64,000 nucleotides of DNA from Heterodontus francisci (Eukaryota): positions 13,252,289 through 13,316,288 of the forward strand of contig NC_090397.1 in NCBI RefSeq assembly GCF_036365525.1, in the 5' to 3' direction. Made by a program: the position numbers and the translations under genes. This document shows, piece after piece, positions 3,868 through 47,116 of this stretch (position 1 is its first letter; every line of letters begins with the position of its first letter). The notes below the pieces were generated by a model. It had not been told where the DNA came from. It did not search any database and was given only the letters and a program-made list of their open reading frames with translations.

Positions 3868-4205
3868 TCAGGTGTTTACTACAACAGGCATTTTCTTTAA
3901 CAGGTGGTTTTGATAGCAAGTTTTCTTTAATGGTTGTTTTCCATAACAGGTGTTTTCTTTAACAGGTTTTTAAATAATGGGTGTTTTCTATAACGGACAT
4001 TTTCTATATTGAGCCAGTTCTATAGCGAATGTTTACTGTATATGGTAGGTTCTATAAAAGTGTTTTTGACATCCGGCAGGTGCTATAGCGGGTGTTTTCT
4101 ATAACGGCTGTTCCCTACATCAGGCCTGTTCTACAGCGAATGTTTACTATAGATGGCGGGTTCTATAACAACTGTTTCGATATCCAGCAGGTTCTGTAAT
4201 GACTG
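3868..4205. repeat. Degenerate ~15-16-bp tandem repeat
   Basis: Recurring ggtgttttctataac(a/g)g-like units. Confidence 0.7.
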
Positions 4206-4499
4206 ATTATCTGCAAACACCAGTTTTATGCCCAGGCAGGAAGTTGACCATCTCCCCACCCACCACTGCCCCTATTATCCCTCCCCGACCTAAATGCTTC
4301 ATTTAGAAACAGTCCATTTTATTTTTCAATAAAATTATGTACTGCTGTACTCAAACGTTTCTAAAACAACCAGCCTTTCCCATTGCCTCTGCTAACACCG
4401 TAATCTGTCTGGAAAGAGCTTCTATATGTAAGGTTCATTATATGGAGTTATTGCATTCCTTTTGTGGCATATTTATATTATTTCTTATTTATTGGTCAG

Positions 4500-4621
4500 G
4501 AAATGGAGGATCTCCTTTTGACTAAGATGAAGGAACTTAGTTCTAAACAGGAGATCAGCTCAGCCTCCTTACAAGGGGACATTTCGGCATTTAAATGCAT
4601 GCTTGAGGCAGAAGAAAGAAG
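4500..4621 (+). CDS. LMNTD1: LMNTD1-like exon encoding the end of an intermediate-filament coil 2B
   Basis: T-rich tract, then cag| EMEDLLLTKMKELSSKQEISSASLQGDISAFKCMLEAEERR, then AG|gtgagc. Resembles the IF helix-termination motif (EIxxYRxLLEGEExR). The phase-2 end matches the 6343 acceptor. Confidence 0.75.
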
Positions 4622-4729
4622 GTGAGCATTTACTGATCATGCACAAACGTGCTGATGGTATTGTCTTGGTCTCATCTTAAAATTTGTTTCTGTCTTTTCC
4701 ACCATCGGTGCACTAAGACTGCAGTGTGT

Positions 4730-5077
4730 CCTATCCACAGGATGCAGTGCAGCAACTCACCAAAGCTTCTTCAACAGAATCTCCCAAACCAATGATCTCT
4801 ACACACCTAGAACAAGGGAAAAACACACATTGGAATACCACCACCTGCAAGTTTCCCTCCAAACTACACACCTGACTTGGAATTATATCGCCATTCCTTC
4901 ACTGTCACTAAGTCAAAATCCTGGAACTCCCTCCCTAACGGTATTATGGGGGCACCTTTGCCACATGGACTGCAGCAGTTCAAGAAGGCTGCTCACCACC
5001 ACCTTCTCAAGGGCAACTGGGGGTGGGCAATAAATGCTGGCCTTGCCAGTGACACCCACATCCCGCAAATGAAGAAA
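4730..5077 (+). mobile_element. 3' end of a second CR1/L2-superfamily LINE family
   Basis: aaatcctggaactccctccctaac…gcagttcaagaagg…gggcaataaatgctggcc tail; related tails at ~232-420(-), ~10735-11100(-), ~16000-16270(+) and ~22130-22495(-). Confidence 0.7.
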
Positions 5078-5759
5078 AGCACAAGTTACAATGGAAACTA
5101 TTCTTGAAAATGTTCTAAACATATTTTATACTCTCCAGTGTCGACATGCTCTGTAAAGTAGACGAGGAGTTGTTGATGGAGAGGCAGGGTCTGCTATAAA
5201 TGGTTCCACAGTTCCACTTACCACAGTGTACTGTGCCATTACCCTTAGTTTTTTGAGTTGCTCCCTTTCTTCCTCTACTCTTTCTGATATCTTATAAATA
5301 AGCAAACAAAGTGGGCCCACATGTGCCACCCACCCTCACTTCACCTTTGTCTTTGCTAGTGTTCTTTCCTGTATTTCTATGTATATCTGTTGTTGCTTCT
5401 CCTCCCTCTATCATTGCCTTTACTTGCTGTTGTTTGCTTTGTCTCTTCCTATGTCTGCCACTCCTTCCCTCTACCACTGCCTGATGGTGATGCCAAACTG
5501 GCAACCAAGAAACTTTTTAGCAGTTAACCTACTGGCTAAAAAAAAGTTTTGGTGCTGCATTTTGTGGCTCTTCCCCTGATTGGAATGGTAATTTATTGTT
5601 TTTGGCATAAGGCGAGCAGCACCATGTTTATATCCATCCCCACAGAAGGTAGAGAACCTGTGGTCAGCAGGAGGCTGGTGAAAGCCTCACATCTTTCTGC
5701 TGTACTGCTTCAGTTCGTTCTAACATGATATGTACTCCTGAAGCAGCGCTTGTTCACGT

Positions 5760-6145
5760 AAATAACGCATTTATATAGCGCCTTTAACATAGAAAAATGT
5801 ACCAAGTTGCTTCACAGGAACATTAATCAGGCAACAGAACTGACACCAAGCCAAAGTAGGAGATATTAGGACAGATGACCACACAACTCTCCGAGATCTC
5901 TAAATTCCCCCAATTTCCTTCGCCCCACATGCCTTCAACTGCCAAGGCCCTAAGCTCTGGAATTCCCTCCCTAAACCTCTCTGCCTCTCTACCTGCTTCT
6001 TTTTCCTTAAAACCTACCTCTTTGACCAAGCTTTTGGTCTCTTGCCTTAATATTTCCTCATGTGGTTAGGTGTCAAATCTTGTCTGAAAACATTCCTAAG
6101 AAGTGCCATTAAAGGTGCTGTGTAAATGCAAGTTGTTGTTGTTGA
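5760..6145. mobile_element. Two L2-like 3' ends in opposite orientation
   Basis: atttatatagcgcctttaac on the left and ctctggaattccctccctaaac…aaggtgctgtgtaaatgcaag(ttg)n on the right. Confidence 0.65.
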
Positions 6146-6342
6146 AAGCAAAGCCTATTGGTATACCAGTGCCTGGCACCATGGAGTGTATCCCCCATAC
6201 CTCCAAGTTTCTTTTAGTGTTGGTGATATAAAGATTGCCCTGAGACAAAATAGTACATATTTTATGTAGCAAACGTTATGTGATAATTGGGTAAATCTAT
6301 ATAAATAGAATCAATTACAAATGTGTTCTTTCTTTTGTAAAG

Positions 6343-7067
6343 GTTGAGAGACAGTCAGTTAGACTGCTGCAAGAAGACCTCTCCATGCAAATCCTATTTC
6401 CCTCCTGCTCGGACATCATGTGCTCCTTTGAACCAGTCTACCTGTCCACGGGTACCTGCTCCATCCTCATGCCCTCCTGTGAACCTACGATCTTACCCGT
6501 CACCTCCTATTTCAAATCCCTGCAAGTCTTTGCACCAAACCTGCAGATCACCATCTCCTGCCCCAACCTGCTTGACTCCAACATTCCCACTGTGCTGTCC
6601 ACCATCTTCTGCTTTGACGACACGCCTTCCTGTATATCAGCCAACCTGTCAACTACCTTCATCTTTGTCCTCCTGCCTCTCTGCGATTCGGCCAAACTGT
6701 TTATCATCTTCTCCTTTTATGTCCTCCTGCCTTCCTGTGAATCGGTTCAGCTGCCCAATACCTTCCTCTATGATCTCCTCCTGCCTTCCTGTGAATCGGT
6801 TCAGCTGCCCAATACCTTCCTCTATGATCTCCTCCTGCCTTCCTGTGAATCGGTTCAGCTGTCCATCATCTTCCACTCTGGCCTTGTGCAGTCCTATGAC
6901 CCGACCACGGTGTCCTTCACCTCTTCCTCTGACCTCATGCCCTCCTGCAATCCCCTCAGCAAGTTGCAGACCTGCGTCAACTCGGTCATGCTCTGTGGCT
7001 CCAGTAGCGTATCCAAAACCTTGTCACAAACCTGAAGTGTCGAGGTTTAGAAATGAACAATGTATGG
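6343..7067 (+). CDS. LMNTD1: LMNTD1-like exon, Cys/Pro/Ser-rich repeat linker (~241 aa)
   Basis: ttcttttgtaaag| acceptor (phase 2), open frame of ORF 6344, G|gtaaga donor (phase 1, matches 10320). Confidence 0.75.
6722..6865 (+). repeat. Coding 54-bp tandem repeat (SSCLPVNRFSCPIPSSMI x ~2.6)
   Basis: Units start at 6722, 6776 and 6830; the first two are identical. Confidence 0.95.
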
Positions 7068-9110
7068 GTAAGATGATGAAGACTTAGTTTTCCATTACTA
7101 TGATTGTGGAATAGACTAATATCTTACAAATATGAAGTCAAAGTTTTTTTTCTTGAACTATCTTCCTCACTTTGTCTTTATAGCACACACTTGACCTGTA
7201 ACTGATCCTGAGAGATGTACAACACTCATCTCATTAACAGGGGTGGGTAACATTTGCTAGAAATGCTAACATGCTGTTTAGGATGCAGCAATTTCAGGTT
7301 GGCACCAATGCAAATTTGACCACAATGCCAATGGACAGTGCTGGGTTTTCCCATGCTGCTTTCTGCTCACTTTCCTTTGACCATTAGTGAAATTTCCAAT
7401 GTTGAGAAACAGCAGATAGGGCGGACATGTTTGACTTCATCGACCATATTGCACAGACGAGATGATCACTTGTGGCAGACTGAGTGGTTTCACTTCACAC
7501 TTTGCACTAGTTGCAGTCCACTTTTCAAAGTCTTTTCAATGGATTAGGTATTTTAAAAGCACCCCGACAGATTTGCCTCTCTCGTAAAGGCTTTAAATTG
7601 GAAACTTGTAAAGTTGGCATTGCACGGGTTTCAAGTAGACTGCAGCTGGTGCAAAGTGTGAAATGAAGCATGTCAAGTCTGTCATGTGGTGACTATCTCC
7701 TCCACCCAATATGTTCAGTGAAGGCAAATGTGATATATATCTACTATACAAATCACACTGAGGAAATCTTCCTTCATGGTAGGAGGGAGAGTCTCACACT
7801 CAGCGCAAGCTGACAACGGCAATTACACTCCTAGTTACACACACAGCTGCACTGTGCTGCCCCCAGGCGCATCGCAGCAATGTACCATCTGCAATACGGC
7901 AGAGTTGTTAGGCTTGTTCACAGTGCATTGTTATGCTGCATTGTTTCAACATTAAAATACTGTAATTTACACACCTACCAGTTCTCCTGCATTCACCCAG
8001 TGCCCTATATACCTACTGTGCAAGTCATTCCCAGGTGTTTTGTAGGTCAAAGGTATCAAGGGTTATGGAATCAAGTAGATAGTGTTAAGACACAGATCAT
8101 CTGTGATCTAATTGAATGGCAGAATAGGCCTGAGGGGCTGAACGGCCACCTCCTGCTCCAAGACAAGAGGATCGAGGGACTGAATGGCCTCCTCCTGCTC
8201 CTATGTTCTTCTTGTTGAAAAGTGAAGCAAAGCAAAAGAAAAGGGCAGGGTGATCACAACCCGCCTGGGGTAGTGAAAGCCCTCTGTTAAAGGGATTAGG
8301 CATGCGTTGGACTTTAAACAGAGATAGAGAATGAAAAAGCAGAGATAGAATAAAAAGATCGAGGTAGAGAAGAGAGAAGAAATGCTGCACAGAATTTACA
8401 ACTTAGAAACAGGACATTTGGCCCAATCAATCTGTGTTGGTGTTTATCCTCCACATGTGGTTCCTATCACCCAAAATTTTTCTTCCCTCCCCTGTCAGCC
8501 AGGTTCTGGAATAAAAACTCTGGACCTGGCTGGATTCAACTGGGGAGGGGCTCTATAAGATCTGTTTAAAGGAGGCCTGGGAGTTAAAATCTGCTCACCT
8601 TGTAGAGGATCAGACGGCTTGTCGCCCACCTTAGGCCCCTGCACGCTCTAATTTCATCATCTTGAGGTAAAATTGTCCCCTCTGTGGTCATTATGCTCAA
8701 ATGATACCCATCTGTCTATAGTTTAGAATTAGAATTAGAACATTACAGCGCAGTACAGGCCCTTCGGCCCTCGATGTTGCGCCGACCTGTGAAACCATCT
8801 GACCTACACTATTCCATTTTCATCCATATGTCTATCCAATGACCACTTAAATGCCCTTAAAGTTGGCGAGTCTACTACTGTTGCAGGCAGGGCGTCCCAC
8901 GCCCCTACTACTCTCTGAGTAAAGAAACTACCTCTAACAACTCACCTGTGTTACAACTTAGAGGAGTGTCACGGGATATGTTAGTGATTGTCCACTTACA
9001 ATGTCTATAATTTTTAATTTACCTGACAACTTAAAGAATTTTCTACACACCATCTCAGAGAGACAAGAACCAGTCTCACTGGACTGGGGCTCAGAAACGT
9101 ACTCTGAGTT

Positions 9111-9379
9111 AGGGTTGTCAACTCTGATTGGACGTATTCCTGGAGGTTTCTTCACATAACTTCCAACTTATAATCGCCTCACCCATTCAAACAGCATTTT
9201 TACCCCACTTTCAATATTTTTATAACTAAGAAACAGAGTTGTTCAAAGAAAATGAAGAAAACCCACAAATATTTAATACCTGTATGATTTGTCTCTCAGA
9301 TGTTGCTCGCAGCAGTGTCCAGGAGATTAATCTTTAACTCCTAGAGACTCCAGGCCAATCCTGGAGGGTTGGCAACCCT
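9111..9379. mobile_element. MITE-like non-autonomous DNA element
   Basis: AGGGTTGTCAAC…GTTGGCAACCCT inverted termini; an oppositely oriented related copy lies at ~12443-12696. Confidence 0.7.
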
Positions 9380-10319
9380 ATTCTACACATTAATAATACT
9401 TCCCACTTGATGACTAGATTCAACCTAGCTTCAAATTAATTGAAATTTGTGAGCTTCAAAAGAACAAAAGATATTTTACTTTGTGAGTGCCACTAAAACA
9501 TTCGTTCCTGTGAGGGAGCACTTCAAGTTAATGCAAGGGCTTCTGTACTTTTTTTTGAAAAAACAAAATACTTCACTTACTTTTTTTCAAGCAGGGTGAT
9601 ACATATTTTACTTGCATATTGTTAATTGAACACTAGAGGGCAGATCCTGATGGGAGTAAACACTTTGCAGCAATTACACTCCAAGGTCTTGTTACCAAAT
9701 GTTAAATGTTTGATGTGAATAATTCAGGGTCTACAATAAAAAAGCTACTGTTGTAATAGCCACTCCAAGTTGAGTGTTTATTACAGCATAACAGAGAAGA
9801 CTTTTTTGTTTTTAAATGGTATTTTCTATTTCCTGTCTTTCCCCTTCCTCATGATCTCCCTCTGCTGCCCACCATCCAAATGTATAATACCCTCACTGAT
9901 GTCACCCAAAATCAAGGTGAGGGTCTGAGAATAGTCTGTGAGGAGTGGGCAGTCCTTTTCGCAGGTCTTTTTCTACAGGAACACAGCTGACCTCCACCTT
10001 GCAGATTGGCATAGCGCCACACGCCCAAGACCAGGAAATAAGTGGGGATCCTGACTGCAGATCTGTGTCCCAGCATTCACCTCAATGTATATACATACTG
10101 CTCTGCCCCACTGCACCCGCCTAAATTTTAGAACAATTTCTGATGTGTGGACAGGATGGGAAAGTTCTACACATTGACCTCCCGTCTTCTGTCTACTAAA
10201 ACAATGCCCACCGAAAAAGCTCCCCCCGCAAAAAAAATAATAGTACACAGCCTTTTTATAAGGCAGCTATTTTGCTAAAGGGGCTTTGCTTATAATCTTA
10301 AGTTCACCAATGACAACAG

Positions 10320-10602
10320 CCATGTACAGAAAAAAAAGCACAGACAGCTGTTTAGGACATGAGGCTGATGGGAGCACCTACAATGACATCTCTTCTTCTA
10401 CAGCGATGGAATGTTGCAATGGTGAGCCAAAGAGGTCTTGCTCAAAGCCTCCAACCCATTCTCTAAACAGCTGCAAATTTGGCCAAGGCAGAGACTATTT
10501 CAACACCATGTTTAAGGAACTGAAGAGGAACAGCATCTCCAAAATGCTCCCTGTTTGCAAGCCACTCATGACCGCGTGCAACCTCAACACACCTATTGCC
10601 AG
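10320..10602 (+). CDS. LMNTD1: LMNTD1 exon preceding the lamin tail domain
   Basis: acag|CC-ATG… frame includes GQGRDYFNTMFKELKR, similar to human LMNTD1 GEDYFLSLFGDSKK as recalled. AG|gtaacc phase-2 donor joins 15737. Confidence 0.8.
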
Positions 10603-11117
10603 GTAACCCAGATATGTTCTATAATCAAAAGTGAAGTTGATGCTTCATATCAAACCTTGTAAGCAGATGAAAAGGCTAGGAAAATGTTAATTGTGCCATC
10701 CTATGGTACGGATTTGCAGAGTTTTTTGCCATTAAATATTCATTCTTGAGATGTGGGCGTTGTTGGCAATTATTGCCCATTCTCCTATGCCATTGATAGA
10801 TGGTATGGGTTAACACAACTGGGCTACTTTGGAGTCAACCATGTTGGTGTGGAACTAGCACAATAATGCCAGACCTAGAAAGGGCCACAGGTTTCCTTCA
10901 CCAAAGGAAACTAGTGAACCAGTGGGTTTTTACAACAAGCCGACAGCTTCAATGGTCACTTTTACTGATACTAGTTTCTTAATTTTATTTGCAGATTTTT
11001 TTTTCAAAAGTGTTGTATTTAGACTCTTATGGCTATCATAGTGGGATTATGCACTCTTCTTCTCTGGATTACTAGTTCAGCAATATGACCATTATACTAC
11101 CATACCCTTACTAGTTA

Positions 11118-11459
11118 GGGTGGCGCAGTGGTTAGCACCGCAGCCTCGCAGCTCCAGGGACCCGGGTCCGATTCCGGGTACTGCCTGTGTGGAGTTTGCA
11201 AGTTCTCCCTGTGTCTGCGTGGGTTTTCTCCGGGTGCTCCGGTTTCCTCCCACAAGCCAAAAGACTTGCAGGTTGATAGGTAAATTGGCCATTATAAATT
11301 GTCACTCGTATAGGTAGGTGGTAGGGAAAGATAGGGACAGGTGGGGATGTTTGGTAGGAATATGGGATTAGTGTAGGATTAGTATAAATGGGTGGTTGAT
11401 GTTCGGCACAGACTCGGTGGGCCGAAGGGTCTGTTTCAGTGCTGTATATCTAATCTAAT
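11118..11459 (+). mobile_element. tRNA-derived V-SINE (HE1-like)
   Basis: tRNA head ggtggcgcagtggttagc, V-domain gtggagtttgca…ggtttcctccca, CR1-like tail with (taatc)n, TSD CTAGTTA. Confidence 0.9.
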
Positions 11460-13360
11460 CTAGTTACTAGCTGACTAGAGAGACTGAAGAAGCTGGGATT
11501 GTTCTCCTTGGAGCAAGAAGGTTATTGGAGATTAAATAAAGGTGTTGAAAATTACAAAGGGTTTTGATAGCGTTGATAGATAGAAACTGTCTCCATTGAC
11601 AGGAGGGTTAAGAATGAGAGGATACTGATTTAATATTTGTAGAAGTACCGAGGATGTGTGTGGAGTGGGGTGTTGGGGTGGCAGTGCTGGTGAACTAAGA
11701 AGAATGTTTTTAATGCAGTGAGTTATTGTGATCTGGAATGTAATATTGCTTGTTCCTTTGGTCTGTGAACTATTGTAAGATTCACAAGACTGCAAGTAAT
11801 ATCCAAAGAAAATGTGGGTTTTTATTATGACTTAACTAGAACATTTTCTTCCTCCAGTGACCGTCACTTACATAGTCTTGAGGTGGTCCTCTTAAGGTTG
11901 TCCCACAACAGAATGCACTGCCTGAAAGAGTTGGGGGGGGGGGGGAGGGGGGGGGGCGCGACGGAAGCAGATTCAATCGTGACTTTCAAAAGGGAATTGG
12001 ATAAATACTTGAAAAGGGAAAAATTTGCAGGGCTGTGGGAAAAGTGCAGTGAAGTGAGATTAATTGGATCCATCTTTCAAAGAGTCTGCGCAGTCACGAC
12101 GGGCCGAATGACCTCCTTCGGTGCTGTAAGATTCTATTGTATAATGTGGTAGAGTATGAAGAGATTACACTATTAGAGGAGAACTGACACAATTTAAAGC
12201 ATTAGTAAATCTGAAATATTCTTGTATAGAGCTGATTCAGTAAGTAGACAGCGGGTGCAGGTTCATCACTGTAGATGTGATGTGTCTGTGGGTGTATTGT
12301 ATAGGCTGATGTGATGTGTTGCCTGAGGGATCTGCATGTCTTTTCAGTGTTGAAGTACAAACTGTCTTTGCTTCTCCTTCTGGTCACTGTGGTGACTGGA
12401 GTCTCAGCACTGCATGCATTGTGCCACTGTGGCCGTTAGCAATAGGTAGCCAACCCTCCAGGATTGCCCTGGAGTCTTCAGAAATTAAGGATTAATCTCC
12501 AGGACGCTGCTGTGAGCAACCCAGGGAAATATCATAGGGGCATTAAAATAATCATCTGTGGTTTTTCATTTGCATTTATCAGTTAAAATAATATTGGTAA
12601 AGGATAAAAAAGGCTGTTTCACTGGGCTGAGCAATTGGAGACGGGACACCATGTAATGAAACTTCCAGGAATATGTCCAAACATAGTTGGCAACCCGAGT
12701 GAGCAGCCACCGTTAATTGGTCAGGAGGGGTCTTCTGATTGTAACAAGCCGTGATGTTAAAAATATGACACTTAATGAGAGCTGAAGGTTTATGATAATC
12801 ACCACACGGCTCGTGGCCACCTAAGCTATTCTTCCTCGTAAACTAGAGATCAATGATATTTAAATATTAATGCTGGCATCTCCTAGCTGCTGAGGGAGCT
12901 TGCTCCCCACTGAAATCAAACATGCTTATCACAAGGAGACTTTTAAACTGACCCATTAGCGGGAAAACAATGAGGTCAGATCGGCTGCCCATTTTATACC
13001 TCGCTTCATTTGAAATCAATGGAGATTAGAATCGGGCAGCTGTAAAATTGGCGTCTGATGCCAACCTGCCTGGGTTGGTTAAAATTACTTCCTATATGCT
13101 CAGCCTAGACCTGTGTGTTTAATACCAGGCAGGTACATCTATTCCAGAATTCACTGATCCCAGTACAGCTTGTAATCACAGTCAAGGTCACTTCCTCACT
13201 GGGATATCTAGATCTAAGAAGTGAGACAGTCACTCTGTCTGCAATCTGATTGGTTTGTTTGCAGTCAATAAACTATGATCTGTTTGGCTCCATTAAGAAA
13301 ATCCACATTGGGATCCCTCTGCTGTAACTGCATTTATTTTCTTTTTAAATGTACATTCTC

Positions 13361-13780
13361 ACAGAGAGAGAGAGATAGAGAGAGGGAAAAACAGAGGAAG
13401 AGAGACACAGACTGAAACAGGCAAAGATACAGAGACAAACAGAGAGACAGACAGTGAGAAGCAGAGAGGGAAAGAGTAAGAAGGAGCAAAGAGCAACTGA
13501 TACAGAAGGGGAGACAGAGAGAGAGAGTGAGATACACCAACAGAGATACAGATAGAGGGAGAGACACACAGAGACAGAGGGAAAGAGATAGAGGAAGAAG
13601 TGTGAAAAACAAACAGGGAGAGGGAATGGGAGAGAGTTAAAGAGGGAGTAACAGAGAGAAAGAGAGAAAAAAATATGTATAGAGACAGAGATAAGAGGAG
13701 ACAGAGGAACAGGCAAAGCCAGATAGAGAGTGAGAGACAGAGACAAAGACAGACAAGGAGGCACGTTTAAAGAGAGACAT
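13361..13780. repeat. GA-rich low-complexity tract
   Basis: Degenerate (GA)n/(GACA)n. Confidence 0.9.
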
Positions 13781-15340
13781 CGAGGGGCCTTAAAGAGTGG
13801 CTGGAACCTACTCAAAAAACATGCAAGGAAATTTCTACCTTCTATTTTCCTGGGGCCAGGAGGCGCAAAAGCGCTCCCGCCAAAATAAACTCCAACCCAC
13901 TGCCTGCCTGTGCAAGCCCTGCCCCTCCCCCTCCTCCTCTGCCCCACGCAGAATCCTTCCCCTTCAGGTTGTGACTGTCAAACGGCTCATGCTTAGCTGC
14001 CTCGGAGCATGGGTTTGAAACCCGTGAATTAGAGCCAGGCCTCAAAATGGCTTAGGGCTGTAACAATATAGGGTGCACTCCTCCCACCAATCCTGGGGTA
14101 CCGAAAATTATCATCAGTCCTGTTGTCTGACTGTAATTATTTGGCTGCTTTGAGCTCATCACTCCAAAGTCTAGAACATGGTTTTCGCAGTGGTGGACGT
14201 AAAAGATTTCACGGCACTATTTGAAGAACAGCAGAGGAGTTCTCCGCAATATCCCGACCAACATTAATCCCTCAACCAACATCACTAAAAAGCAGGTCAT
14301 TATCACATCGCTGTTTGTTGGATCTATAAATTGGTTACTATGTTGCCTACAACAGTGACTACACTACAAAAGTGATCTGCAATAGGGGGCACAATATTAA
14401 AATTAGAGCTAGGCCATTGAGGATTGAAATCCAGAAATACTTTCATACAAAGGGTGGTGGAAATCTGGAACTCTTTCCCTCAAAAGGCTCTGGATGCTGG
14501 GGGTCAGTTGCAGCTTTCAAGACTGAGATTGATTGTTTCTTAGGTAAAGTGAGCAAGAGTAATGGAGCAAAGGTGGGTAAATTGAGTTTACGGTACCGAT
14601 CAGGCATGATCTAACTGAATGGTGCAACAGGATTGAGGGGCTGTTAATGATTGCTATTAATTGGCTCTTAAGCTCTTTGAATGCCCTAAGGTGCGAAAGG
14701 CACTACAAGGTCTATATTTTATGGAGCTGGGGGTGGAGGGAGTGGGGGAATCCCAACACTGGGCCTATAAGGCAGGGGAACTCTGCCTCAGACCTTTGGA
14801 GACCACCCTGGCTCTATTTAACAGCACTCAGACAATTAATTGTCTGGCGCCGTGGTCCCCGTCCCTTTAAGGTTAGGGATCCCACCTCCCAGAGTTGCTG
14901 GCCAATCAGATGGCTGGCAGGTCAGTAGTATTGGCAGCATCACGGGGAGCGGTGGCCACTGCTGGTACTACAAAAGGCCTGGGACCAGGACTATTGCTGG
15001 AGCCTTGGACCCCAGTTAAGTGTGGCAGGGTTGCTGTGCCTGGTCTGGCTGACCTGGTGGGGGAAGGGGGGGGAAGACACTGAGAGTGGGAAGGTGTTAG
15101 CACAGGGGCAGCCTTTGCCACCGGGGGCCCTTCTTAGGCCAGAAATTACCCCCCCAACCCCGCACGGAGGCCACGTGGTGGAGGCTTCCCAATGCCGCTA
15201 GTAGAATACTAGAGACGGTGGGACGAGGCCCTTAAGTGGTTATTAATCGGTCAGTTAAGGGCCTCAATTGGCCACCTGACAGGAAGGATGTCTTCAGCCT
15301 TTCCTAACCTGACAAAATCGCATGGAGATTGAAGGTTGAG

Positions 15341-15497
15341 GGGAATGAAGGGTGCGGGGAGGGAAGGGTTCAGGGAATGAAGGGTGTGGGGAGGGAAGGG
15401 TTCAGGGAATGAAGGGTGCGGGGAGGGAAGGGTTCAGGGAATGAAGGGTGCGGGGAGGGAAGGGTGAGCAGAATGAAGGGTGAGGGGAATGAAGGGC
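15341..15497. repeat. 32-bp G-rich minisatellite (~4.5 copies)
   Basis: Unit gggaatgaagggtgcggggagggaagggttca. Confidence 0.9.
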
Positions 15498-15736
15498 TGG
15501 GGCAATTTGGAGATATTAACTGATGAAAATGATGAACAAGAAAAGATTTCAGCTTAAATGTAGTTGGAAATGCATTTATATGGTGACACACATGCAACCA
15601 GCCTCAAGTTATAAGTGCCCTGAAATGTGTCCCAAAGTGGTGAAGCTTCAACAAACCTATTTGTTTTTACTTGCAACTTTGACATATTCTCCAATTTACT
15701 TGAAAAGTGAGAACATAATCTCTTTCTGTATTCCAG

Positions 15737-15923
15737 CACCATGGGGAACATCAAAATAGTTGAAGTTGCTGCAAATGGCCACTTTGCTCGACTCTTAAAT
15801 ATTTCACAGGACACAGAGGAGGACATTGGAAACTATGTTCTGCAGCAGAATATTGGTGGCCAACCTGTGACAGTGTATCGCTTCCCCCCCAGGACACGAG
15901 TGAATGCAGGATCTGGTGTAACG
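15737..15923 (+). CDS. LMNTD1: LMNTD1 exon, N-terminal half of lamin tail domain
   Basis: ttccag| TMGNIKIVEVAANGHFARLLNISQDTEEDIGNYVLQQNIGGQPVTVYRFPPRTRVNAGSGVT |gtaagt; typical LTD Ig-fold sequence. Confidence 0.92.
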
Positions 15924-16332
15924 GTAAGTAAAAATCAACAGCAGTCTCCGTTCATAATGTTTAACCCCAAACTATGTACTAAACTCCACTTCAAGTCACA
16001 TGTCATCCTCACTTGGATATAAATCGCCGTTCTTTCATTGCCTTGCTGGAATTATCCCCCAGTCTGTGCTAAATTAGTGACCTTTGCCCAATTGTTCCTG
16101 GGCCAAAGTACCACAAAAATCCTAAAACGCCCTCCCTAACAGCACCATGGGGACACCTTCACCACATGGAACTGCAGCGGTTCAAGAAGAGGGCCCACCA
16201 TGACCTATTCACAGCAACTGGGGATGGGCAATAAATGCCAGTCCTGCCAGTGACGTCCATATCCCGAGAATATCTATTTTTAAATCTCTCTGTAATTCAG
16301 ACATTAACACAGTTTAAATCATTACATTTTAG

Positions 16333-16452
16333 GTTTGGGCAGCTGGAGCAAAGGTCCCTCATAATCCTCCAAAAGACTTTTTATGGAAGGAATGTAATAA
16401 ATTTGGAACCGGTCCTGATTGTACAACAATCTTGTGTAAGCCCAATGGACAG
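16333..16452 (+). CDS. LMNTD1: LMNTD1 exon, C-terminal half of lamin tail domain (GC donor)
   Basis: tttag| [40 protein letters not shown] |gcaagt; 120 nt, phase 0/0; close to human [40 protein letters not shown] as recalled. This frame is not in the ORF track. Confidence 0.93.
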
Positions 16453-17032
16453 GCAAGTGATTTTGATTTTGCATTGAATAATTCAAGTGTCAATGGCATT
16501 AACATAGAAACATAGGAATTTACAGCACAGGAAGGACATTCAGCCCATTGAGACTGTGCTGGCCAAAAAGGAGCTATCCAGCCTAATCCCACCTTTCAGC
16601 TCTTGGTCTGTAGCCCTGTAAGTTACAACACTTCAAGTGCATATCAAAGAGTTTATTAAATTGACAGTTTCCGCCTCTGCCATTATTTCAGGCAGTGAGT
16701 TCCAAACCCCCACCATCCTCTGGGTGAAAACATTTCTCCTCAAATCCCCTCTAATCCTTCTTTAAATCTATGTCACCTGGTTATTAATGAGGCTAGCTAT
16801 TTTCATAGAATGATACGACACAGAGGGAATCCCTTCGGCCCGTCATGCCTGTTCTTTGAACCGTCCTTTCCACATAGCTCTGAAAATTTCTTAACTTCAA
16901 TTAATTACCCAATTCCTTTTGAAAGTTACTGGTGAACCTGGTTCCACTGCACTTTGAGGCAGTGCATTCCAGATCATACATAACAACTCACTGCGTGAAA
17001 AATCTCTCTTCATTTTGTCTTTGGTTATTTTG

Positions 17033-20166: not shown

Positions 20167-20357
20167 GCTGTTGCTTGGTTCACTCCTGCTCCTGGAAACT
20201 CAAAATTAAAGAACCCTTGCAAAGATGGAGGACAGTTCACAGACTATGAGCATCTGCTCCCAACCAATGATTGTCAAATTAATTTTCAACTAGACAAGGG
20301 AAAGGATGAGACTTTTGCAAACGTGTGCCGCTTTTCACCAGTGGTCTTACCTATGAA
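20167..20357 (+). CDS. LMNTD1: LMNTD1 exon after the LTD
   Basis: ttcccttag| AVAWFTPAPGNSKLKNPCKDGG…SPVVLPMK, AA|gtaggt; AVAWFTP corresponds to human AIAWYTP; phases fit both neighbours. Confidence 0.88.
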
Positions 20358-22726: not shown

Positions 22727-22896
22727 AGAGAGGCCTCCCTCCTTAAATTTCCCTGTACGATGTCCTTGGGGTCAGAGTACAGCTTCTGCTACACACCCGG
22801 ATTTCAGCTTGCCCAGGACTCTGTCTGTCGGTAATGATGGTAGCAGTCAGTGCAGGGACTCCCGCTCACAGTCTGCTCGGCCAGACCCTGCCCCAG
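22727..22896 (+). CDS. LMNTD1: LMNTD1 exon
   Basis: ttttgcag| ERPPSLNFPVRCPWGQSTASATHPDFSLPRTLSVGNDGSSQCRDSRSQSARPDPAP G|gtgag; similar to human EKEIPPTVFPNRSPWCQNP…SAHP…RTRSTRPNRASG. Confidence 0.9.
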
Positions 22897-34917: not shown

Positions 34918-35009
34918 GCGCCCTAAACTCCAGATCGAACACTTCAAACCAGTGCAGGAAAAACTCTTGCGACAAAAATGACAAAAAATCGTCAACATGC
35001 TCTACGGCA
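34918..35009 (+). CDS. LMNTD1: LMNTD1 penultimate coding exon
   Basis: Strong polypyrimidine tract and acag| (phase 1), GALNSRSNTSNQCRKNSCDKNDKKSSTCSTA, |gtaagc (phase 0). Confidence 0.7.
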
Positions 35010-40108: not shown

Positions 40109-40258
40109 AATAGTTCAGGGCAACAGAAAATCTTTGTCCCAGGGACGTTGCTGTCCCAAGTTCAACAAAAGTCCACAGGACTACAGCATTTAAAATCCAT
40201 GCAGAACTTGGCATTCCAGCCCCCGATGCCTCGTCCTCCCCCAGTTGCATCCTGGTGA
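40109..40258 (+). CDS. LMNTD1: LMNTD1 terminal exon A (candidate)
   Basis: ttcttattatttacag| phase 0: NSSGQQKIFVPGTLLSQVQQKSTGLQHLKSMQNLAFQPPMPRPPPVASW*; unique sequence with a motif-like C-terminus. Confidence 0.65.
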   Translation, partial: NSSGQQKIFVPGTLLSQVQQKSTGLQHLKSMQNLAFQPPMPRPPPVASW

Positions 40259-46978: not shown

Positions 46979-47116
46979 CCTCACCATCGAGGGGTGCTGT
47001 GCATGAATCCGTCTCCATCTGCCTCCCCTCTACAACAGTTTTATGCCAAGGCTTCTCGCAATATCAACGTTCCCAATCAGACCTCACCCTGTCCCACAGT
47101 CCTCTCTAACCTTTAA
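46979..47116 (+). CDS. LMNTD1: LMNTD1 terminal exon B (candidate)
   Basis: gttatttttcag| phase 0: PHHRGVLCMNPSPSASPLQQFYAKASRNINVPNQTSPCPTVLSNL*; followed by AT-rich UTR-like sequence with AATAAA near 48591. Confidence 0.55.
   Translation, partial: PHHRGVLCMNPSPSASPLQQFYAKASRNINVPNQTSPCPTVLSNL

Follow-up and report, generated by a model that had tools for sequence, protein, structure and literature searches.

The 64,000-nt window analysed in this study (C27:13252289-13316288 of Heterodontus francisci) raises the question of which kind of intermediate filament (IF) protein combines the end of an IF rod with an LTD and terminates without a CaaX box. An earlier note on this DNA had proposed an LMNTD1 orthologue with lamin intron positions, possibly a non-prenylated rod and LTD lineage surviving in cartilaginous fish.

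The rod end recognized in that note is present, but it is only the last part of a whole rod. Mapping of orthologues onto the 200 kb of DNA before the window located seven further rod exons, the most distant 85 kb and the nearest 15 kb from its first position, with the gene start approximately 85 kb upstream. They lie on the forward strand of C27 at 13167155-13167274 (exon 1), 13178080-13178264 (exon 2), 13179390-13179578 (exon 3), 13190125-13190218 (exon 4), 13192906-13193088 (exon 5), 13202518-13202643 (exon 6), and 13236977-13237078 (exon 7). The complete model comprises 16 exons and 984 codons without an internal stop, and all exon ends are AG/GT or GC. The H. francisci protein record P0001 is identical to the last 865 residues of this model and thus lacks the first 119. 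Whether exon 11 or exon 8 served as the query, P0001 was retrieved at 100% identity, together with shark and ray orthologues, and full-length models with rod and LTD were found in seven other elasmobranch species.

Within the window, on the same strand, exon 8 (4500..4621) is the last rod exon and encodes the end of coil 2 and the IF consensus. Exon 9 (6343..7067, 725 nt) encodes a Pro/Ser/Cys-rich linker and includes a 54-nt tandem repeat of 2.7 copies (6722-6865); the linker ends in exon 10 (10404..10602) with a conserved GQGRDYF motif. The LTD is distributed over exon 11 (15737..15923, first part), exon 12 (16333..16452, second part, 120 nt with a GC donor), and exon 13 (20167..20357), in which the LTD ends and the tail starts. 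Exon 14 (22727..22896) encodes a conserved tail segment. This segment is likely part of the nematocilin tail domain described by Kollmar, as the Nem rows of the alignment in that paper contain a comparable stretch (PMC4448529). Exon 15 (34918..35009) is the last exon common to both alternative ends. Last exon A (40109..40258) ends with ...FQPPMPRPPPVASW, identically to coelacanth LacNem_A, and alternative last exon B (46979..47116) ends with ...VLSNL and matches the zebra shark isoform P0006. As the note had stated, neither last exon ends in CaaX, and a CaaX was found in 0 of 38 family members. The resulting domain order is a lamin-length IF rod, a Cys/Pro-rich linker, the LTD, and a tail from one of the two last exons.

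Splicing was explored with contigs from four sequencing runs (X1-X4), guessed to be RNA with none recorded as RNA, which were mapped to window positions 4000-11100. Clear spliced cover was obtained in one of the four runs (X1). X2 and X3 gave only small pieces in exon 9 and X4 gave none, which is uninformative on the expression level. In X1, contigs 1 and 2 cover all of exon 9 except the tandem repeat. Contig 1 (1625 nt) has 1216 nt preceding exon 9, where the coding exons of the model add up to 1121 nt. Coverage of the 122 nt of exon 8 and nothing else would give its bin a depth of 11.27; the value obtained is 11.2. From this length and depth we infer that exon 8 is joined to exon 9. In contig 2, exon 9 is followed directly by exon 10 at depth 24, with intron pieces at depth 2-3, and the remaining 760 nt of this contig correspond exactly to exons 11-15. 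The join of exons 9 and 10 is thus seen directly; the 4621-6343 junction named for a check in the note did not appear among the read matches listed. Taken with the orthologue gene models, the contig arithmetic indicates that the whole rod is spliced to the LTD.

The IF similarity predicted in the note was confirmed by profile searches. On a lamin-rod profile, the rod as a whole reaches 90.7 bits, and it retains both IF consensus ends. By themselves, the 40 residues of exon 8 are weak evidence, with no Pfam Filament match and 10.3 bits on this profile, a score reached by none of 500 shuffles (best 8.0). The Pfam scan of single exons found a relevant family in one of five, namely the LTD in exon 11 (E 1.5e-5). 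Behind the rod, the LTD is recognized above the cut-off (E 6.8e-12), so that the proposed combination of rod and LTD in a protein without a prenylation box is borne out. Filament and LTD were both present in 9 of the 16 homologues from the exon 11 search. Among 13 scanned proteins, Filament was above the cut-off in seven (best E 6e-16), below it in three, and without a match in three; the truncated record P0001 fell under the cut-off (28.1 vs 40 bits). Genome-wide profile searches did not reveal the LMNTD1 locus, either among the 133 best Filament candidates or among the best LTD candidates listed, and therefore cannot serve as a family census. Among solved chains, lamin A/C tails come nearest (E 9e-22), followed by lamin A and vimentin rods. 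A fold model of the orthologue P0004 shows near-continuous helices over residues 12-382 at a mean pLDDT of 52, with low confidence in the LTD part.

For the comparison of introns, three lamin genes (on C4, C36, and C38) were built from the same genome and aligned with the LMNTD1 model. Tandem lamin-like matches were also observed on C38. Shark LMNTD1 matches seven of the nine lamin introns in column and phase, and introns 1, 3, 4, 5, 6, and 8 are identical in both respects in all three lamins. The in-frame splice and the phase-2 intron within Arg claimed for exon 8 were found as described: the exon has 122 nt with AG/GT ends and begins in phase 0, and its 3' end falls in phase 2 within the Arg of ...EAEER[R]LRDSQ, in the column and phase of lamin intron 6 (3/3). 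The lamin-like introns seen in the LTD also held up. The VT|VW intron is lamin intron 8 in all three genes, and the intron after the 120-nt exon is lamin intron 9, for which the column was computed for the C4 lamin only (same column, 120 nt); the counterpart exon of the C36 lamin has 117 nt, and the C38 model ends before this intron. Exons 3 and 4 of LMNTD1 together span 283 nt, as do lamin exons 2 and 3, which shows that the long coil 1B is kept. In contrast to the lamins, introns 2 and 7 are missing and three additional introns split the rod. The shared introns show that shark LMNTD1 descends from a lamin-like gene. They do not make it a lamin, because lamin introns are also common to canonical cytoplasmic IF genes. 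Kollmar, in the part of the 2015 paper available, was doubtful of a wider use of intron models (PMC4448529).

The gene is the shark orthologue of LMNTD1, as the note had proposed, which is apparent from its neighbours and from the tree. On the same strand, ~70 kb beyond the final LMNTD1 exon, there is a RAS gene whose CaaX tail is polybasic, and an RA-domain (RASSF) gene lies ~117 kb upstream on the opposite strand, head to head. We take these to be KRAS (downstream) and RASSF8 (upstream), the pair suggested for a synteny check; human LMNTD1 lies in a KRAS/RASSF8 neighbourhood. The rod tree contained 37 rows, 10 of which, including shark LMNTD1, have a skewed composition. Five rows were labelled 'lamin' by us, as their database entries carried no name. 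Shark LMNTD1 grouped with other cartilaginous fish (100/100), and these with the named LMNTD1 of lungfish, salamander, toad, and turtle (91/78); this LMNTD1-only group was split off from all other rows by a branch in 92% of the bootstrap trees. LMNTD1 and LMNTD2 formed a clade (100/99), followed outward by amphioxus, hemichordate, lophotrochozoan, and coral proteins. A branch of 1.03 (100/100) separates lamins and chordate type III/IV cytoplasmic IFs. The suggested phylogeny thus placed the gene with LMNTD1/2 and apart from lamins, but on a sampling without keratins, protostome canonical IFs, Hydra, Nematostella, and ctenophores.

Based on the gene structure, domains, introns, neighbours, and tree position shown above, the window very probably contains exons 8-16 of a shark LMNTD1 of the nematocilin/cilin family, with a complete lamin-length rod, an LTD, and neither a CaaX nor a classical NLS. 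Its protein is likely cytoplasmic. It is predicted to dimerise as a coiled coil and to assemble into filaments, which would support ciliary bases and sperm flagella. A cytoplasmic location would agree with the missing nuclear signals and with the ctenophore cilin, which forms cytoplasmic, cilia-associated filaments and is also cytoplasmic when present in zebrafish embryos, according to the accessible part of a preprint (10.1101/2025.08.21.671432). With both IF consensus ends and the long coil 1B kept, the putative coiled-coil dimer should be able to polymerise. Support of ciliary bases and sperm flagella may be proposed by analogy with the ctenophore localisation and with human LMNTD1, reported in the same part of that preprint as enriched in spermatids and ciliated cells. 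For sperm longitudinal columns, the literature search showed no connection to IF proteins.

Lamin-length rod, LTD, and seven of nine lamin introns are also what a divergent nuclear lamin would have, one that joins the lamina without CaaX and prenylation, and the source database indeed uses the names prelamin-A/C-like and lamin-B2-like. We consider such a lamin highly improbable, given that a long branch with full support keeps the shark protein apart from the lamin group and that the ctenophore homologue was cytoplasmic in zebrafish embryos in the preprint cited above. Moreover, the classical NLS pattern K[KR]x[KR], the only one scanned, is absent from the 984 residues, whereas five of the six lamin matches carry it near residues 419-474. 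Vertebrate nuclear lamins share the long coil 1B, the LTD, and introns 1, 3, 4, 5, 6, 8, and 9 with shark LMNTD1, which differs in the absence of an NLS between rod and LTD and of a CaaX, in its long linker and tail, and in its separate clade. It is similarly improbable that the locus mostly yields two separate proteins, one consisting of the rod and one with the LTD but no rod, with the joined form minor or a product of annotation. Rodless models of 404-405 amino acids with a common start in three sharks (P0003, P0010, and P0011), a read-through ending after exon 9 in models of two sharks (P0017 and P0019), and the annotation of rod and LTD as split genes in some sharks point in this direction. 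However, when this genome was read directly at the site of the common start, the codon proved to be missing and the frame shifted, and both the depth of the exon 9-exon 10 join over that of the intron pieces and the full-length models of the other elasmobranchs argue for the joined protein.

The least credible of the explanations derives shark LMNTD1 from the canonical cytoplasmic IFs of the protostome type, surviving in a chordate; these IFs keep the LTD and the long coil 1B. The domain plan is identical, and the tree, without any protostome canonical IF, is not a direct test of it. Nevertheless, this origin appears extremely improbable: the shark protein groups with mollusc, annelid, hemichordate, amphioxus, and coral proteins and not with chordate type III/IV IFs, and most of the grouped invertebrate proteins carry one of its two tails. 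In addition, two papers, in the parts available, set nematocilin/cilin apart from the protostome LTD-bearing cytoplasmic IF line as a separate, older lamin duplicate (PMC4448529; 10.1101/2025.08.21.671432).

The assignment to the nematocilins/cilins connects the shark gene to a rod-bearing family that is already described, cartilaginous fish included. According to the accessible text of Kollmar (2015), in which the family received this name, nematocilin consists of rod, Ig, and conserved tail, occurs in most eumetazoans, and has lost the rod in 'fish and mammalian' members; the alignment in the supplement includes HsNem, ClmNem (rod and LTD), LacNem_A, and LacNem_B (PMC4448529). ClmNem matches the chimaera protein P0020 in the part of the alignment available. 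Kremnyov et al. (2025) identified HsNem as LMNTD1, renamed the family cilin, and stated, in the preprint text available, that rod and LTD are kept in lungfish and a cartilaginous fish and the full domain plan in turtles and frogs (10.1101/2025.08.21.671432). In our homologue searches, rod-bearing LMNTD1 was also found in lungfish, salamanders, frogs/toad, turtle, and sturgeon. Therefore, the rod and LTD lineage suggested for cartilaginous fish exists, but it is not special to them and the gene is no shark-only relic. The rod loss stated for fish in the accessible text of Kollmar does not hold for cartilaginous fish and sturgeon. Mammalian LMNTD1 (IFLTD1; koala P0057 and tamandua P0070) shares the LTD, the G(Q/E)G.DYF motif, and part of the tail with the shark protein, but has no rod.

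Rod, Ig/LTD, conserved tail, and the absence of NLS and CaaX are common to shark LMNTD1 and the nematocilins/cilins, as far as the latter are described in the parts of the sources available. In comparison to the other members measured, the Cys-rich linker is an elasmobranch feature. Among the 11 of 18 rows measured, it has 262-326 residues with 9-12% Cys in all six elasmobranchs, versus 0-0.7% Cys in all five others.

Pairs of tail A and tail B isoforms were found in sharks, sturgeon, lungfish, turtle, oyster, limpet, and Owenia; the invertebrate pairs were compared as protein isoforms, not as exons, and one snail isoform pair does not fit the pattern. The sequence of last exon A has matches in the ends of coral, hemichordate, and mollusc proteins and in the Nem rows of the Kollmar alignment. 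Invertebrate B ends score 7.5-22 bits on vertebrate tail-B profiles (0 of 300 shuffles as high). Compared pairwise, last exons A and B showed no resemblance (446 of 500 shuffles as high), and their origin by exon duplication is thus unsupported.

The paralogue LMNTD2 (C11orf35; P0071) lies on C14, also between a RAS and a RASSF gene. All 11 modelled introns share the phase with LMNTD1 and 10 share the column. Rod exons of 189, 94, 183, 126, 102, and 116 nt are kept, with phases as in LMNTD1; an exon for coil 1A was not found. Shark LMNTD2 reached E 2e-35 on a cilin-rod profile and the turtle LMNTD2 remnant E 5e-16. Relative to LMNTD1 the rod is eroded, with the rod-end consensus lost, a Filament E of 4.5e-5, and a long branch. 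The scheme in the accessible part of the preprint places the rod loss of LMNTD2 at the duplication (10.1101/2025.08.21.671432). The exon sequences fit a slow erosion, which LacNem_B with its partial rod already hints at in the part of the Kollmar alignment available (PMC4448529). A third RAS and RASSF pair, on C25, gave no LTD match, by which the absence of the gene is not established.

An LMNTD1 intron map, rod exons in shark LMNTD2, two alternative tails common with molluscs, and a Cys-rich elasmobranch linker were not found in the literature searched, mostly outside subscription papers, and the words 'intron', 'exon', and 'synteny' are absent from the available preprint text (10.1101/2025.08.21.671432). 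The intron map, the LMNTD2 rod exons, the tail pairs, and the Cys linker may thus be new details. Combined, they would make sharks representatives of the ancestral two-member cilin system of jawed vertebrates, with a tail switch of LMNTD1 inherited from the bilaterian ancestor and a Cys/Pro linker that disulfide-links the filaments of cartilaginous fish into a stiff flagellar or ciliary support. In such a system, the rod exons in both LMNTD1 and LMNTD2 would mean that the LMNTD2 rod was lost by slow erosion after the duplication. We regard this wider scenario as rather unlikely.

As a member of the nematocilins/cilins, shark LMNTD1 is an exception to the textbook rule that vertebrate cytoplasmic IFs have no LTD; it is a clean example of an exception already contained in two papers. 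Database labels that name LMNTD1 proteins lamins, or shorten them, are corrected by the gene model. Shark LMNTD1 is a full-length vertebrate cilin that evolves slowly and whose gene is mapped, which makes it suited for tests of filament assembly and ciliary location and useful for asking what the rodless human LMNTD1 still does.

The LMNTD2 paralogue of the shark LMNTD1 gene lies on the minus strand of another contig of the H. francisci genome (G000:C14:107862087-107994985, loci L065-L078), where it carries the database label lamin-B1.S-like. The majority of its rod exons are retained, with sizes and phases identical to those of LMNTD1 in the window, and its rod-end consensus is gone. The intron after exon 12 of LMNTD1 begins with a GC donor (window 16453-16454), whereas the paralogue has a GT donor at the equivalent position.

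Among the matches listed in the genome-wide Filament search, several lay in tandem at G000:C38:14.66-15.52 Mb and showed a lamin-like exon pattern. One gene built from this region had the exon sizes of lamin and grouped with lamins; the region is possibly an expanded lamin cluster. A third RAS and RASSF pair was found at G000:C25:29.00-29.27 Mb, where the search with exon 11 gave no LTD match.

LMNTD1 has two alternative last exons (window 40109-40258 and 46979-47116), and isoforms of both tail types were found in animals as far apart as sharks and oyster, limpet, and one annelid. Read-through of the exon 9 donor (window 7068-7088) yields an end in GKMMKT-stop, common to gene models of two other sharks (P0017 and P0019). 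Directly 5' of exon 10, the frame stays open over window 10307-10403 and contains two ATG codons; there is also a second AG acceptor near 10355. This extension is present in a zebra shark isoform, rodless gene models of three sharks start at its equivalent, and it was absent from the contigs of X1, a run presumed to be RNA.

The LLAKMK stretch of exon 8 (window 4500-4621) left a weak trace in several short rodless relatives (e.g., P0060, P0081, and P0134); the named koala and tamandua proteins fell outside the best 22 listed in this comparison. In the alignment of Kollmar (2015; PMC4448529), the human LMNTD1 sequence, HsNem, begins in the block of the same exon. Because of this trace and the position at which HsNem begins, rodless forms may retain the exon as a vestige close to their start.
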